NCBI GenBank assembly: GCA_963825135.1
Contig: CAWGRW010000009.1
Span: forward strand, 2,723,248 to 2,787,247
DNA from: an uncultured bacterium
GTDB lineage: Bacteria; Desulfobacterota_D; UBA1144; Nemesobacterales; UBA2774
DNA: 64,000 nt
Direction of reading: 5' to 3'
Numbering within the stretch: position 1 is the stretch's first letter; each line of letters starts with the position of its first letter. Under the pieces are notes generated by a model. It was not told the DNA's origin and made no database searches. It saw only the letters and a list, made by a program, of their open reading frames with translations. Shown in pieces: positions 4,972-61,225 of this stretch. Made by a program: the position numbers and the translations under genes.

Positions 4972-5021
4972 GAATTGGTTGAGGTATCAGTTGTATCCTG
5001 CTTTATTACCTATACTTATAC

Positions 5022-5390
5022 ATCGACCTTCGACCCTTCGACTCCGCGCAGGGCAGGCTCCTGCTCAGGATGAACGGATTTATTTTTTTTAATGTACCCC
5101 CTCACCCTAACCCTCTCCCACGCTGGGGAGAGGAAACAAATATACGTCCTTCGACAGGCTCAGGACGGATAGATGAGATTGCCGCGTCGCTTCGCTCCTC
5201 GCAAAGACAATATAAGCCTGTCGTCGCGAGGCTACGCATACAGCCGCGTCGATCTCGCTTTTTCATGAGATTGCCGCGCTGCTTCGTAATCTGGTATTTG
5301 ATCTCCTGTGCGGCGGTTAAAGTGCTTATTTGCGATCAGCCAGGGGCGACCGATTGCTCTTTTTCATCGCAATCGTTGCAATGACATAAA
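5022..5390. repeat. Cluster of REP-like palindromes of several families
   Basis: cttcgac..ctcaggatgaacgg, ccctcaccctaaccctctcccc..ggggagagg and gagattgccgcg..cgcaatgac units that recur elsewhere in the window. Confidence 0.8.
5287..5376 (+). mobile_element. ~90 bp structured insert, copy A, inside a gagattgc...gcaatgac palindrome
   Basis: Shares atcagccaggggcgaccgatt...aatcgt with copies B, C and E; hairpin cgattgc/gcaatcg (5351-5375). Confidence 0.6.
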
Positions 5391-5467
5391 TTAAGGGAAT
5401 ATTAATCTCCTTGACTGATCCGGGCGAATGTTTATCATAAGAGTATCGGTAAATACGCTACGGAGGC

Positions 5468-7153
5468 GTGCATATAAGTAAAATATACGGAAAGACGTCA
5501 GGACTCACGAGAAGTGAAACAGGCAGCCTTGAAAGGCTTTACAGAAGGAAAATCCCACCGAAAGAAATAATAACACTGGAACTTGCCAGGACCCTCACCA
5601 GGCTCACGCACGAGATGAGGAGGGGTATCTCCGTCCTCATAGACAGGAAGGGGAAGGTCTCCGCCGTATTCCTCGGTGACTCCCACGAGCTTCCGTACGA
5701 CGAGGTGCTGGGGCGATCGAGGGAGGCCAAATACAGGCTCAGGGGCTCAAGGCTCGTCCACACGCACCACAAGAATTCCGCTTTGAGCGAGCACGACCTC
5801 GTGACGCTCGTAAACGAAAGGCTCGACCTGATGGGGCTTCTCGAAGTGAGGCCCGACGGCGACCCGGGCGCGTTCCATCTCGCGCACGTGCTCCCGCCGA
5901 ATAACGACGGAAAGAAATGGCGGGTGGAGGAGTACCGGGACCTCGGACAGGTGGACCTCAACTGCGACGAGCTCATAAGCGGCGTCGAGCAGAGCCTCGA
6001 AAAGTCGTATCACGAGCACGGGGGCGCGAAGGACCTCGAAGGGGTGCTCCTCGTGGGGTACTCGAAGAAATACCGCGCGGAGGCCGAGGAATCGCTCGAA
6101 GAACTGAAATCGCTCGCCAAATCGGCCAACAAGGCCGTGCTCGGCACGATCGTACAGATAAGAAGGGAGACCGACCCCAGATACCTGATCGGAAAGGGAA
6201 AGCTGCAGGAGGCGGTACTCGCGGCGAAGCAGGTCGGCGCAGAGAAGATCATATTCGACGTCGAGCTTACGCCCACGCAGGTAAAGTCGATATCGGACGA
6301 GACTAACCTCACGGTCATGGACAGGACCCAGCTCATTCTCGAGATATTCGCGAGGCACGCGGCCACCGCCGAGGGGAAGCTGCAGGTGAAGCTCGCCCAA
6401 TTCAAATACAACCTGCCCCGCCTGGTCGGGCGCGGCATAGAGCTCTCGCAGCTCGGAGGCGGCATCGGGACGAGGGGCCCCGGCGAGAAGAAGCTGGAAG
6501 AGGAGAGGAGAAGGATCAGAAAGCAGATAGACAACCTCGAGAAAGAGATCACGCAGCTAAGCAAGAGGCGGGAGAGGACGCGCGAGAAGAGAAAGGAGAC
6601 GGGGATACCGACCGTCACGTTCATAGGCTATACGAACGTCGGAAAATCTACCCTCTTCAACGCGCTCACCAACAGCGGGGTAATCGTCGAGAACAAGCTG
6701 TTCTCGACGCTAGTGCCGACTACCAGAAAGATAATGCTCCCCGGAGGGAGGGAGATACTCATTACCGACACTGTGGGGTTCATAAGCGACCTCCCGAAAG
6801 AGCTCGTCAACGCATTCAGGGCGACGCTCGAAGAGCTCGGGGGCTCGTCGCTCCTGCTGCACGTGGCGGACGCGAGCGACCCGATGGTGGACGAGAGGAT
6901 AGAGTCCGTCAACAAAATACTCTCCCAGACGGGCTACGATGCGATATCTCGGATGATAGTGCTCAACAAGGCCGACAAGACGCCCCCCGACGCGGCCAGG
7001 AGGCTTGGCAGGGTTTACGCCGCCCCGCTCATTTCGGCGCGGCAAAAGGACGCCATACCGGAGATGCTGGGGCTTATCGAGGACAGGATATTCGGGACGA
7101 GCCCCGAAGACGAGGCGCGGGGACAGATGGCGTGGGGCCTCAATACCGCATAA
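5468..7153 (+). CDS. hflX: GTPase HflX (long form with N-terminal extension)
   Basis: GGGIGTRGPGEKKLE, GYTNVGKSTLFN, DTVGFI and NKAD motifs. Confidence 0.95.
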   Translation: MHISKIYGKTSGLTRSETGSLERLYRRKIPPKEIITLELARTLTRLTHEMRRGISVLIDRKGKVSAVFLGDSHELPYDEVLGRSREAKYRLRGSRLVHTHHKNSALSEHDLVTLVNERLDLMGLLEVRPDGDPGAFHLAHVLPPNNDGKKWRVEEYRDLGQVDLNCDELISGVEQSLEKSYHEHGGAKDLEGVLLVGYSKKYRAEAEESLEELKSLAKSANKAVLGTIVQIRRETDPRYLIGKGKLQEAVLAAKQVGAEKIIFDVELTPTQVKSISDETNLTVMDRTQLILEIFARHAATAEGKLQVKLAQFKYNLPRLVGRGIELSQLGGGIGTRGPGEKKLEEERRRIRKQIDNLEKEITQLSKRRERTREKRKETGIPTVTFIGYTNVGKSTLFNALTNSGVIVENKLFSTLVPTTRKIMLPGGREILITDTVGFISDLPKELVNAFRATLEELGGSSLLLHVADASDPMVDERIESVNKILSQTGYDAISRMIVLNKADKTPPDAARRLGRVYAAPLISARQKDAIPEMLGLIEDRIFGTSPEDEARGQMAWGLNTA

Positions 7154-22442: not shown

Positions 22443-23700
22443 ATGTACGAGCTATTCAATTCGGCCGCGTTCAGGGAGGCGATAGTCCAGTTCGAGAGGG
22501 CGAGCAGGCTCCTGACGGACGACGACGGACTCGAAAACAGGTTCAGGCTCCCTCAGAGGACGCTCGTAGTGAGCTGTCCAGTGCGTATGGACGACGGCAC
22601 TATAAAGGTATTCGGCGGGTACAGGGTGCAGCACAACCAGACCCTCGGGCCTTACAAGGGCGGCATACGATACCACCCGGACGTGGACATGGGGGAGGTA
22701 GCCGCGCTCGCGATGAATATGACGTGGAAGTGCGGGCTCGCGGAGCTGCCGTTCGGGGGCGCGAAGGGGGGCGTGTCGGTCGACCCGCGCACGCTGTCCC
22801 AGGGCGAGCTCGAGAGGCTCACCAGGAGGTACACGGCCGAGATACTCCCCGTAATCGGCCCGAACAAGGACATACCCGCGCCTGACCTCGGGACGAACCC
22901 CCAGGTAATGGCATGGATCATGGATACGTACAGCGTGGCGCAGGGGTACACGGTCCCCTCCGTCGTCACGGGAAAGCCGGTCATCATAGGCGGCTCGCTC
23001 GGGAGGGAGGAGGCGACGGGATACGGGGTCGCTTACGTGACCGAGGACGCGCTCAGGAGATTCAAGAGGTACTCGGACTCGATAAAGGTGGTGATTCAGG
23101 GGTTCGGGAACGTCGGGAGCCACACCGCGCACAAGCTCGACGATATGGGGATCACTGTCGTAGCCGTGAACGACGTCTACGGGGGCATATACAACCCTAA
23201 CGGACTCTCCGTCGAGGATCTGATACGAACCGTCAGGGAGAAGGGAAAGGTGAACGAGTACGTCAAACGGGGACAAGGTGACGAACGACGAGATGCTCGC
23301 GCTCGAATGCGACGTGCTCATACCGGCGGCGCTGGGGAGGGCGATAACGAAGCAGAACGCGTCCGGGCTCAAATGCGGGATGGTGGTCGAGGGGGCGAAC
23401 GGCCCGACTACGGCGGAGGCGGACGACATACTCCGGGAGAGGAACATACCCGTGATACCGGATATACTGGCAAACGCCGGGGGGCTTATCGTGTCGTATT
23501 TCGAATGGGTTCAGGGGCTCCAGGAATATTACTGGTCGAGGGAGGCCGTGCACGACGAGCTCAAGAAGCGCATGAAGAGTACGTTTATCAAGGTAGCCGA
23601 GTACGCGGAGAAAGAGGGCGTGTCGATGCGTCTCGCCGCGCTGATGCTCGGCATAAGCCACGTATCCCGGGCCAAAAAGCTCCGGGGACTTTATCCGTGA
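22443..23700 (+). pseudogene. gdhA: Glutamate dehydrogenase (Glu/Leu/Phe/Val family), +1 frameshift near 23262 (probably an assembly indel)
   Basis: GPYKGGIRYHP, FGGAKGG, DIPAPD, QGFGNVG; C-terminus (EGANGP, PDILANAGG...SYFEWVQ) lies in another frame, 23278-23700. Confidence 0.9.
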
Positions 23701-23718
23701 GGTTTATATTTGCGAAGA

Positions 23719-23807
23719 ACGGTTCTGAGCGAGCGCAAGAACCGGTCGCTGCTGGCCGATTGCAATTAAGAAAGTTACCCACGCGCCATACCAAATGAAT
23801 CCAGCAA
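23719..23807 (-). mobile_element. ~89 bp structured insert, copy C
   Basis: Hairpin cggttct/agaaccg 23720-23744; long-range tgctgg/ccagca; lies inside the left palindrome of a REP doublet. Confidence 0.6.
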
Positions 23808-23851
23808 CCGCGGCAATCTTATGAAAAAGCGAGATCGCCACGACCAAAAAG

Positions 23852-23937
23852 TTTTGGATTTAGTATCGAATTGCCATAAGGTATCGTTTCACTGGAATCA
23901 TCCAGGGGCAACCGATTCCTCGCACGCTCGAAATCGT
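23852..23937 (+). mobile_element. ~86 bp structured insert, copy B
   Basis: ttttggatt...atcatccaggggcaaccgatt...gctcgaaatcgt inside gagatcgccacg...tctcgcgatgac. Confidence 0.6.
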
Positions 23938-23993
23938 TCTCGCGATGACAAAAAAAGAGGTGTCATTGGTTCGTCACTCTGTGTCTTCAAAAT

Positions 23994-24215
23994 TCAACTA
24001 GCTTCTTCGTATTCAATATATTCCGCCATGCTTGATGGAGCGGGAACTTCAAGACCATCCTCAATTAATCCCCGAATATGAAATGGAATTGCGTCTTTCA
24101 TAAGCTGCAAGGTTTCTTCAATCGTATCGCCGACTGCCACACAGCCGGGTAAATCGGGGCAAAACGCTCCGTAGGTTCCGGTTTCGCTCCGCTCAACTAT
24201 TATTAAATATTCCAT
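23994..24215 (-). CDS. HicB family antitoxin-like protein (solo)
   Basis: Y.IIVE....GTY.A.CPDLPGC.A.G.T.EE.......AI..HI.GL.EDG..VP.P. Confidence 0.88.
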   Translation of the reverse strand: MEYLIIVERSETGTYGAFCPDLPGCVAVGDTIEETLQLMKDAIPFHIRGLIEDGLEVPAPSSMAEYIEYEEAS

Positions 24216-28987: not shown

Positions 28988-29151
28988 CTAAATCCTCCCT
29001 AGCCCTCCTTTTTCTAAGGAGGGAATAAAAGATATGAAATATTATTTTCCCCCTTTCGTAAAGGGGGATTTAGGGGGATTTTAGATGACGGAGAAAGCTC
29101 CGCCCTTCGATCCTTCGACTTCGCTCAGGACAGGCTCCTGCTCAGGGTGAA
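28988..29151. repeat. REP-like palindrome cluster
   Basis: aaatcctccctagccctcctttttctaaggaggg; cccctttcgtaaaggggg; nested cttcgac..ctcagg units. Confidence 0.75.
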
Positions 29152-42364: not shown

Positions 42365-42452
42365 GCCGGGAATGGGCGTCCCTTCGGCCGTTTCGACGGC
42401 ACACTTCGTGTGCGCTAAGACGGAAGAAATGAAAACTAAATCCTCCCCGACC

Positions 42453-42544
42453 TTTTGGGCTTTAGCAGCATGAGACAGAAGTTGAATTTACGTAGGCATC
42501 TTGTTCGACATGACATCTACAGTACTTACGTTGCTCAGAATCGT
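42453..42544 (+). mobile_element. Degenerate ~91 bp insert, copy D, splitting an aaatcctccc...aaggaggg palindrome
   Basis: Ends ttttgggcttt and gctcagaatcgt match copies A-E; middle diverged; flanks rejoin to match the 28990 palindrome. Confidence 0.45.
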
Positions 42545-42772
42545 CCTTTACAAAGGAGGGAATTGAAATCAAACAGATTAGATTTCTCGCTCAGGCGAGA
42601 AATGAGAGAATAATGATCGAGCAAGTAGCTTCGTACAAGACTACTAAGGCATTGAAGTGACTTAAGCGATTCTTGCTCATAAGATTGCTGCGCAGCGTCG
42701 AATGACTTGGAAGGTAAGGTACACCCATTCTAGTTCCCCAAGCCGTGGAGGAGGAATGAAAAAATCGACAAA

Positions 42773-50292: not shown

Positions 50293-50548
50293 CACCCGGC
50301 ACATACGTCCGGACGTATTTCAGGGACTCCTCCCGGCGTAGCCCCCAGGGCTATGAGGAATGCGGGGGGAGTCCCGCACGAATGCACGGATTTAAATCAA
50401 AATCACCCTCATCCCTCATTACCTGCACCCGCCCTGTTCCTGACAAGTATCGGCGAACGGGGCGGGTTACTTTTGCTCTGGCCGGACTTCCATCCGGAAT
50501 GACAACTTCTTATTTAAATGAAATTAAGAAAATCTGAGACCCCGAATA

Positions 50549-50636
50549 TTTTGGCTTGATAAACGAATAAGCGGAGAATAGTTACATCATTGGATTCAGC
50601 CAACGGCATCCGTTTCTTGCACACGCTCAGAAACGT
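50549..50636 (+). mobile_element. ~88 bp structured insert, copy E, inside gagaccccgaa...ttcagggtgac
   Basis: Hairpin cgtttct/agaaacg 50611-50635; long-range ttggct/agccaa. Confidence 0.6.
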
Positions 50637-50758
50637 AATTCAGGGTGACTAAATTTAATTGACGGAAAGTAACACCCCCATCCTACCCTTCCCCCCTCAA
50701 GGGGGAAGGAATCAATAAAAAGGACGAACTGATATTTAGTTATAACTGTGATCCGAAC

Positions 50759-61046: not shown

Positions 61047-61225
61047 CGAGATTGCTTCGCTTTGCTCGCAATGACAACTACGAGATCCCAAAACAAGCCT
61101 GCCCTGAACTTGTTTCAGGGTTCAGGACGACTATTTGAAAGACAGATCTCTCGACTGCGCTTCGAAATAACAAACGAAAATACAGATAAATCCCCCTGAA
61201 TCCCCCTTTTTCTAAGGGGGAAAAC
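61047..61225. repeat. REP-like palindrome cluster
   Basis: gagattgcttcgctttgctcgcaatgac (empty site), nested ccctgaacttgtttcaggg, aaatccccctgaatccccctttttctaaggggg. Confidence 0.75.

Follow-up and report, generated by a model that had tools for sequence, protein, structure and literature searches.

A structured, non-coding DNA module of about 70–97 nt, present in more than 100 copies and restricted to one bacterial lineage, occupies the loops of palindromes in a 64,000-nucleotide stretch from an uncultured bacterium (assembly GCA_963825135.1, contig CAWGRW010000009.1, positions 2,723,248 to 2,787,247; hereafter the window), where a head-to-head pair of copies lies at positions 23,719–23,937. 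This module behaves as inserted DNA because it obeys an orientation rule, enters its hosts at reproducible points, nests in copies of itself, decays, and is present or absent at orthologous sites; as it encodes nothing, it must be moved in trans. The reading that we favour, and to which we give an even chance, is that of a lineage-restricted non-autonomous DNA inserted into hairpin tips and moved by an enzyme supplied from elsewhere. As to whether the module acts as DNA or as RNA, the evidence leans to DNA.

The first-pass annotation, made from the letters of the window, had described five such inserts (A to E) in REP-like palindromes and had proposed a covariance model search of the genome and its relatives, which found further copies in abundance. 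In the source genome (G000; 3.13 Mb in 17 contigs, 94% complete, with C9 and C10 as main contigs), a first profile made from the four good copies A, B, C and E detected 68 further sites at E<1e-3, and a 42-copy profile gave 136 matches at the same threshold (72 on the plus and 64 on the minus strand) and none in the reversed genome. The covariance model, R1, gave 138 matches at E≤0.01 (150 of 518 candidates scored). A, B, C (on the reverse strand) and E can be aligned over about 95 nt and are confirmed as members of a genuine repeat family, far beyond chance. The small contigs (C1–C8 and C11–C17) are 93–99% identical variants of stretches of C9 and C10, which makes the assembly a mix of strains and brings the non-redundant number of modules nearer to 106, the number of copies on C9 and C10. 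Their density is high on C10 (34 in 224 kb) and towards the two ends of C9, and hardly any lie between 0.7 and 2.2 Mb of C9.

Neither terminal inverted repeats nor an open reading frame (ORF) were seen in the module, nor a target duplication in the palindrome hosts, as the first-pass annotation had stated; its description of a non-coding, non-autonomous, multi-copy module is borne out by the 136 profile matches, and no cognate enzyme is encoded in the window, again as claimed. Rfam gave no match on the window at the gathering score, nothing except tRNAs on seven copy-rich loci at E≤1, and no match on 23600–24060 even at E≤5, so that a known Rfam family, which would have undone the initial proposal, was not found. 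A narrow literature search returned no description of such a structured insert.

Copies, orthologous sites and distribution of the module

The copies of the window, their host palindromes and the uninterrupted (empty) palindromes are as follows; scores are those of R1, and SD stands for Shine-Dalgarno sequence.

5175–5208, plus strand: empty palindrome GAGATTGCCGCGTCGCTTCGCTCCTCGCAAAGAC, uninterrupted
5267–5385, plus strand: host palindrome of A, left arm GAGATTGCCGCGCTGCTTCG (5267–5286), right arm GCAATGAC (5378–5385); read on the minus strand as GTCATTGC..GGCAATCTC, of the same arm type as the empty units at 5175–5208 and 61048–61075
5287–5377, plus strand: copy A, 5' end TAATCTGG, core CAGCCAGGGGCGACC, hairpin CGATTGC/GCAATCG, end CGTT; 66.6 bits at 5285–5381
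23708–23821, minus strand: host palindrome of C, AAGATTGCCGCGG .. CTTCGCAAATA, whose tag end is degenerate
23718–23807, minus strand: copy C, the best-scoring; 81.3 bits at 23714–23810
23831–23949, plus strand: host palindrome of B, GAGATCGCCACGACC .. CTCGCGATGAC, forming a head-to-head doublet with the host of C
23852–23938, plus strand: copy B, hairpin CGATTCC/GAAATCG; 64.6 bits at 23848–23942
28990–29027, plus strand: empty SD-bearing palindrome AAATCCTCCCTAGCCCTCCTTTTTCTAAGGAGGGAAT, with an ATG 9–10 nt past GGAGGG
42438–42566, plus strand: host of D, SD-bearing palindrome type AAATCCTCCC..(C)CTTTACAAAGGAGGGAATT
42453–42544, plus strand: copy D, decayed; 0.6 bits
50536–50649, plus strand: host palindrome of E, GAGACCCCGAAT .. 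ATTCAGGGTGAC, a 114-nt unit
50549–50638, plus strand: copy E; 74.7 bits at 50545–50641
61048–61075, plus strand: empty 28-nt palindrome GAGATTGCTTCGCTTTGCTCGCAATGAC

The family of five proposed at first therefore stands for A, B, C and E (64.6–81.3 bits), while D, which aligns poorly, is only a decayed copy: it retains the 5' half and a remnant of the 3' loop and stem but has lost the GGCGWCC core and the 5' strand of the stem. We count D as a decayed copy because it occupies the usual position in a usual type of host and because an alignment of its body with the copy at C9:218 kb scores 12.5, above 200 shuffles (-5.5 ± 3.8, maximum 4.0). All three uninterrupted units initially listed for comparison, at 5174, 28990 and 61048, exist, the one at 28990 being of another palindrome type, and empty forms of B's host type (GAGATCGCCACGACC-ACAGTACGGT-CTCGCGATGAC) are found elsewhere in G000. 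The palindrome type of 5175–5208 is widespread beyond G000, since this 34-nt empty unit alone is matched by dozens of soil and sediment metagenome contigs with unrelated flanks in the four DNA metagenome runs used as short Logan contigs (X1–X4); metagenome depth in the bin 5000–5663 reaches 575, with loose contig ends at 5175 and 5208.

Comparison of filled and empty sites in relatives, as had been suggested, showed that the B and C units are absent from the orthologous site in G001, G002, G004, G005 and G007, all of the same genus; in five sister genomes this locus holds 87–150 nt of unrelated spacer or other palindromes, against a 620-nt spacer in G000. G005 shares with G000 a small reverse-strand ORF at this locus, lacks the whole B unit, and carries in the palindrome orthologous to C's host a different filler of 36 nt. 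The E locus is empty in G003 (64-nt spacer) and carries other repeats in other genomes. In G005 it contains the insert without any difference, between flanking genes that are 77% identical and beside a spacer that is unalignable. Within G000, contig C12 carries the B/C locus of the window in a variant form, in which the spacer measures 24 nt and is free of repeats; taken as filled/empty pairs, the strain-variant contigs revealed no module polymorphism and a single unrelated 83-nt gap. A joint 23841->23938 that could have been an empty allele of B was rejected as a repeat match, with 22 letters on one side and undetermined letters between.

The distribution was examined with R1 at E≤1e-9 in 120 genomes across the phylum. 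Matches were obtained in 22 of them, every one from the taxonomic family to which the window belongs (21 of 32 genomes besides G000), and in 0 of 87 genomes from the other eight families; three family genomes scored as negative have 2–5 weak matches each at E≤1e-3. The module is thus confined to one bacterial family.

Structure of the module and its pairing on the two strands

The constant part of the module is its 3' end, which consists of GGCG(A/T)CC, a 7-bp hairpin with a pyrimidine-rich loop of 10–11 nt (TTGCGCTCGCTC or TCTTATTCATC), and a terminal GTT. Upstream lies a variable body with a TTTGG box in most copies, and an identical 3' module can be joined to differing 5' bodies, including a repeat of about 290 nt. 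The compensatory changes reported at first glance in the hairpin are confirmed: pairing is kept in the stem variants GGTTCT/AGAACC, GATTGC/GCAATC, AGTTGC/GCAACT, GAATTC/GAATTC and TGCTCT/AGAGCA, and in 42 copies both-sided changes occur at 5 of the 7 pairs, with 95.9% of cells paired and 0 of 500 shuffles reaching the observed value. With 56 copies, from G000 and at least 10 related genomes, both-sided changes extend to 6 of 7 pairs (93.1% paired). Non-standard cells comprise 23 C.A/A.C against 2 G.U on the module's top strand, many of them from related copies that are not independent, and because of this imbalance the hairpin pairs better on the complementary strand, which carries the GTCAT tag of the hosts. 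Copy B is a case in point, as its hairpin is complete only on the reverse strand, where the C.A mismatch of the plus strand becomes a G.T pair, just as the first reading had it.

A second long-range helix, between the 5' TTTGG box and CCAA of the core, is possible. It had been proposed as varying in concert and is moderately supported: some true exchanges are found (TTGG/CCAA, CTGG/CCAG, TAGAT/ATCTG), but the pairs are mostly G.U, and 64% of cells are paired on a structure-neutral MAFFT alignment and 80% on the model-fitted one.

These features bear on the view that the module is a structured small RNA or cis-acting RNA family, selected on the transcript, whose copies ride on palindromic repeats. 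Strong stem covariation with a conserved loop speaks for such an RNA, as do a TTGG/CCAA helix kept largely by G.U pairs, possible on the top strand only, the co-orientation of the tRNA-linked arrays described below with their tRNA genes, which could allow co-transcription, and the conservation of E without change between two species. However, the hairpin mismatches favour the opposite strand, Rfam gives no match, and the 89 intergenic copies follow no orientation rule relative to the flanking ORFs (OO 29, SS 24, OS 20 and SO 16). Furthermore, self-nesting wrecks the hairpin of the host copy, decayed copies such as D occur, and sites are filled or empty between orthologues, all of which make an RNA family an unlikely explanation in our eyes. 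Integron attC, Xer and ribozyme readings, judged from the sequence by eye, were rejected for absence of their defining motifs.

Landing sites and mode of entry

The main hosts have the form GAGAT-stem-loop-stem-ATGAC and comprise at least six stem types. Among the 136 copies, 39 have a GAGAT-like left and a TGAC-like right flank and none has the inverse arrangement, which extends to the whole genome the fixed orientation noticed in the window; 62 short empty palindromes of this form are present in G000. Palindrome hosts miss 3–10 nt of their tip relative to empty palindromes of the same type; the flanks do rejoin into empty units, as had been claimed, but with the tip lost in the filled sites. 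The module was also correctly seen as nested in palindromes, although REP-like palindromes are not its only landing sites, which include SD-bearing palindromes, its own hairpin and the 3' flanks of tRNA genes.

The second host type, AAATCCTCCCTAACCCTCCTTTTTCTAAGGAGGGAATT, whose right arm is a Shine-Dalgarno sequence, occurs 50 times in G000, and 10 of these palindromes, including the host of D, are filled at one common point, TAACC^(CTC lost)^CTTTTT. It has a perfect SD at its 3' end and an anti-SD 5' arm, CCCTCC, with an ATG 9–10 nt further on at 28990–29040; because of these two arms it looks like a dispersed translation-masking hairpin. Module insertion splits its anti-SD arm.

The module also enters itself. 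Four independent cases of self-nesting were found, all of them with entry behind base six of the hairpin of the host (CCNNTT) and with a loss of 4–5 nt of the host (ACGC, GCTT, GCTC, CTTAC), and among five paralogous loci at C9:662–667 kb the nested copy is present in two and absent from three. In G003 (locus L090, 2780–2840) and G004 (locus L139, 1300–1350), the palindrome of one stem type lies co-oriented inside the loop of another type; as palindromes nest in loops of other stem types, loop entry is a property of the whole repeat superfamily and not of the 90-nt module alone. The region C9:662–667 kb, together with 2203–2208 kb and 12–14 kb of the same contig, also encodes an eleven-member family of paralogues of about 170 aa with a hydrophobic C-terminal tail, ..EWGMIAAAAGLMLVGVFFAVR, which we take to recall IPTL-CTERM sorting signals; a module on the opposite strand overlaps the last 20–24 nt of 7 of the 11 ORFs.

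A long-loop variant of the palindrome itself, shuffled as a BIME/NIME-like mosaic by recombination, gene conversion and slippage, with empty forms being partly deletion derivatives, would also produce filled and empty sites. It fits the recurrence of the GAGA..TGAC unit and its insert as one block in other genomes (E's 114-nt unit recurs in sister genomes at 80–92% identity, with BLAST ends at the unit ends), the joint presence or absence of the whole unit at the B locus, and chimeric copies such as that at C9:55239, which combines a left arm and 5' stem of one type with a 3' stem and right arm that belong to a second. The sharing of 3' modules by different 5' bodies, the nesting of palindromes in palindromes, the likeness of the empty loop ACGA of the E type to the module end ACGTA, beside a GAA repeat, and the intergenic DNA of C10, a mosaic of several repeat modules, point the same way. 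Nevertheless, one and the same module turns up in six or more unrelated stem types as well as in SD-type palindromes, beside tRNA genes and within its own copies, its insertion points are reproducible within a host type, and G010 and G016 have the palindromes and the GIY-YIG gene discussed below with almost no module; mosaic formation thus seems to us improbable as the source of the pattern.

The last class of landing site lies behind tRNA genes. Arrays of 2–7 unlike units follow tRNA-Arg(ACG), tRNA-Arg(CCT), tRNA-Arg(TCT) and tRNA-Glu(TTC), each unit being followed by 9–15 nt of the tRNA's own 3' end, and 17 of the 136 copies are followed by GGGGACGC or GGGCGCGC. The arrays concern 5 of the 48 called tRNA genes, one of which is a strain-variant duplicate, and the window's five copies are not of this kind. 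In E. coli, tRNA-linked repeats follow tRNA genes as runs of units that each terminate in a duplicate of the tRNA's 3' end, and in Neisseria, intergenic mosaic elements are made of repeat units separated by short palindromes. A subset of the module copies, being units behind a tRNA gene with a copy of its 3' end, qualifies as tRNA-linked repeats, and runs of such units resemble those of E. coli. In contrast to both systems, the units here form one family with the palindrome-borne inserts, and, unlike in tRNA-linked repeats, neighbouring units differ in their stem and are therefore not simple tandem duplications. One unit type resembles the T-arm region of a tRNA but the other arrays do not, and a tRNA-derived origin of the units was rejected.

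Candidate enzymes and the proposed route of movement

Read on the opposite strand, the host palindromes take the form (T)GTCAT-stem-loop-stem-ATCTC. This layout, a GTC tag, a palindrome and an ATC tail, is that of the Neisseria NTS CGTCATTCCCGCGMAVGCGGGAATCYRG, and it corrects the initial description of the hosts as REP-like: they are not RAYT-type REPs but carry the GTC-tagged NTS/SRM layout of GIY-YIG Ssn nucleases. The first description of the Ssn nucleases and their motifs dates from 2025 and leaves the spread of these open (Chenal et al. 2025, PMC11893778).

GIY-YIG nucleases were among the enzyme types for which a search had been advised, and a candidate cognate gene does exist elsewhere in the genome. 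The only small GIY-YIG gene of G000 lies outside the window at C9:191934–192224 and encodes 97 aa from an inner ATG; its product matches Pfam GIY-YIG with 56.6 bits and no other domain, and the G004 homologue (96 aa) scores 63.1 bits. The nearest solved relatives are UPF0213 proteins of about 100 aa, and NCBIfam gives only a sub-threshold match to a group I intron endonuclease. Inverted doublets of the GTCATTTCGA..GAGAAATCT palindrome flank the gene on both sides. Outside these doublets lies a 57-nt hairpin-forming direct repeat (GGGACAATGGG..CCCATTGTCCC) in two copies (locus L130, 1150–2000), which may point to a duplication of the whole unit or to its insertion at a hairpin.

Homologues are found in 22 of the 33 family genomes. 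Among 12 homologous loci, palindromes lie within 400 nt in 11 and on both sides in 6, against a background of 0.056 per kb, and the module is present in the flanking palindromes of 4 of the 12. One flanking palindrome of G002, TGTCATTCCCGCGAAAGCGGGAATCCA, is almost the published NTS consensus (PMC11893778). Module and gene occur together in 20 family genomes. Two genomes, each a fragmented assembly, have the module without the gene, 2 have the gene without the module, and 9 lack both, so that the gene is present in 20 of 22 module genomes and in 2 of 11 module-free ones.

The available part of the Ssn report shows several shared traits (PMC11893778): a small single-domain GIY-YIG gene that lies between hairpin repeats, and hundreds of dispersed repeats with GTC tag, palindrome and ATC tail in a defined orientation. 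According to the same source, SsnA acts on single-stranded DNA (ssDNA) only and cleaves one strand, and separate NTS halves still support cutting, which is compatible with palindromes that hold an insert in their loop (PMC11893778). The present system differs by its many stem sequence types and longer loops, and its nuclease is a predicted one; moreover, loop inserts, self-nesting modules and tRNA-linked arrays are not described in that part of the report (PMC11893778). The host palindromes are Ssn-like in layout and gene linkage but not members by the SRM pattern; we call them Ssn-like because that pattern finds no excess in G000.

The favoured reading can be put in the form of a mechanism in which a single-stranded module would land in hairpin tips that are extruded or exposed by replication. 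The module would enter in one orientation, with the loss of 3–10 nt of the tip, by means of an enzyme supplied in trans, for which the Ssn-like GIY-YIG system is the leading candidate; at tRNA flanks, successive different copies, each with a copy of the tRNA 3' end, would build the arrays. This route is favoured because all landing sites are hairpin-forming, the nuclease of the published Ssn system is ssDNA-only, and a split motif is still a substrate. Spread of the module at the ssDNA level is, to our mind, about as probable as its contrary. Its dependence on the predicted Ssn-like nuclease is a more tentative proposal, and the most specific version, in which the module is the mobile payload of an Ssn-type GIY-YIG system and an opened tip is replaced by a copied or ligated hairpin-bearing module, we hold to be rather doubtful.

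Several observations weigh against insertion at hairpin tips by such a system. The published Ssn cleavage falls a few nucleotides 5' of the motif and not in the loop (PMC11893778), and does not by itself explain tip insertion. The degenerate SRM pattern has 16 matches in G000 against 18, 21, 23, 32 and 21 in five first-order Markov simulated genomes, and none of the 15 matches listed falls in the host palindrome family. The co-occurrence of gene and module may reflect the module's need of palindromes, and related genomes are not independent samples; G014, without the gene in this query, has 3 weak module matches at a looser threshold. The 9–15 nt tRNA-end repeats resemble integrase-type or target-primed events more than tip insertion, and the TTGG/CCAA helix is G.U-rich on the top strand, in the opposite direction to the hairpin mismatches. 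Finally, GC skew is inconsistent with respect to copy orientation, with no clean replication-strand bias, and neither excised or circular forms nor a recent polymorphism for insertion were seen.

Other enzymes account less well for the module. A longer copy with the same ends enclosing an enzyme, for which a search had also been advised, was not found in the regex and ORF scans of G000: 3' modules without the 5' box led to other bodies, including the repeat of about 290 nt, with no enclosed gene, and clustered ORFs adjoining copies were only spurious repeat ORFs and an exported-protein paralogue family. Pfam on the 128 ORFs of the 15 small contigs gave nothing beyond a broken IS3 element.

In enterobacteria and pseudomonads, REP/REPIN-RAYT systems and BIME mosaics consist of inverted doublets with inner motifs and a cognate gene flanked by repeats. 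The present repeats resemble them as dispersed extragenic palindromes in inverted doublets and mosaics, with a repeat-flanked gene and covarying stems, but G000 has no RAYT and the tag is GTC instead of GTAG. Compared with BIMEs, the inner motif is about 90 nt long and structured, sits in the loop of a single palindrome, and also occurs without one.

A remnant of an HUH system (IS200/IS605, RAYT or IS91-type) or of a retro-element acting on hairpins would agree with the subterminal hairpin, the lack of inverted repeats and duplications, and the GTT that directly precedes many 5' ends and is present at every 3' end; copies with a variable 5' part, a constant 3' part and tRNA-end repeats that vary likewise resemble target-primed events. 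Yet no Y1 HUH transposase, reverse transcriptase or TnpB was found in the 94%-complete G000. Y1 occurs in 5 of the 33 family genomes, including a RAYT-like gene of G003 (L090 1276–1902, contig C8) flanked by a different, GTAG-type REP, CTGTAGGAGCGGCTTCCAGCCGCG, and Y2 in 1 of 33, a module-free genome; no HUH or reverse transcriptase gene bounded by module ends was found in the module-rich genomes searched. We consider this origin very improbable. Copies of the GTAG-type repeat are also present in G000 (e.g. C9:369290) and G004.

As for mobilization by an insertion sequence (IS), IS621 (IS110 family) and IS1397 (IS3 family), the precedents cited in the first-pass annotation, are autonomous REP-targeting elements of about 1.3–1.5 kb with their own recombinase. 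The module resembles them by its orientation-specific entry into extragenic palindromes and differs by having no ORF, and neither the broken IS3 nor the IS110 of relatives shares ends with it. In Pseudomonas putida, ISPpu9 (IS110) moves MITEPpu9/ssr9, which has 8 copies and whose ends (A'/B' boxes) copy those of the IS (PMC12288879), and the present module could be such a MITE-like passenger, moved by a DEDD recombinase with a bridge or seek RNA. The likeness extends to a small non-coding module found alone, in tandem or by the recombinase gene, in extragenic palindromes, without inverted repeats and moved in trans, and IS110 elements themselves have neither inverted repeats nor long duplications and enter palindromic repeats, their targets, in a single orientation (PMC12288879).

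An IS110-family element is indeed inserted in an SD-type palindrome of two relatives, 4–5 nt from the module insertion point and with CT on both sides:

G001, contig C119, locus L081, 1250–2480: IS110-family element
G004, contig C15, locus L080, 960–2200: IS110-family element, a module directly abutting its right end

Its left non-coding end has bridge-RNA-like patches matching the target GATCCTCCCT and its own ends GGACGGTATCTTAGG. However, the IS ends (TGTATCTTAAAA.. / ..GACGGTAT) are unlike those of the module (TRNTTTGG.. / ..CCGTT), and, since 10 of 50 SD-type palindromes are filled, a single adjacency among two IS copies is what chance predicts. The DEDD_Tnp_IS110 domain is found in 6 of 33 family genomes, 2 of them module-poor, and is absent from G000, an absence that is weak evidence as short IS contigs may be missing from bins. 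No guide-like complementarity was detected, the flank-core duplex energy being -11.0 for self and -10.1 for non-self pairs and the longest common substrings between interior and flank, in four orientations, being alike for both. In contrast to MITEPpu9, the module has ends that differ from those of the only nearby IS110, exceeds 100 copies, and occurs where the IS is absent from most genomes searched. IS110/IS621-type mobilization thus finds little support, and we judge it quite unlikely.

Significance for the lineage

The multiplication of palindromic repeats in bacteria is known only for the RAYT/REP case. If the module were the payload of an Ssn-type system, small DNA elements would move by a non-HUH, non-DDE route, and the proliferation of Ssn-related palindromes, their nested forms and the tRNA-linked arrays would be explained. 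Should the route through ssDNA hairpins hold, the module would stand for a new class of enzyme-poor mobile DNA and would bring tRNA-linked repeats into the same frame; if the module is not mobile, it is still a lineage marker. Spurious ORFs overlap the module, which calls for caution in gene calling. In any case, this lineage offers a natural experiment in which one small nuclease gene, many stem types and a 90-nt module that records insertion events come together.

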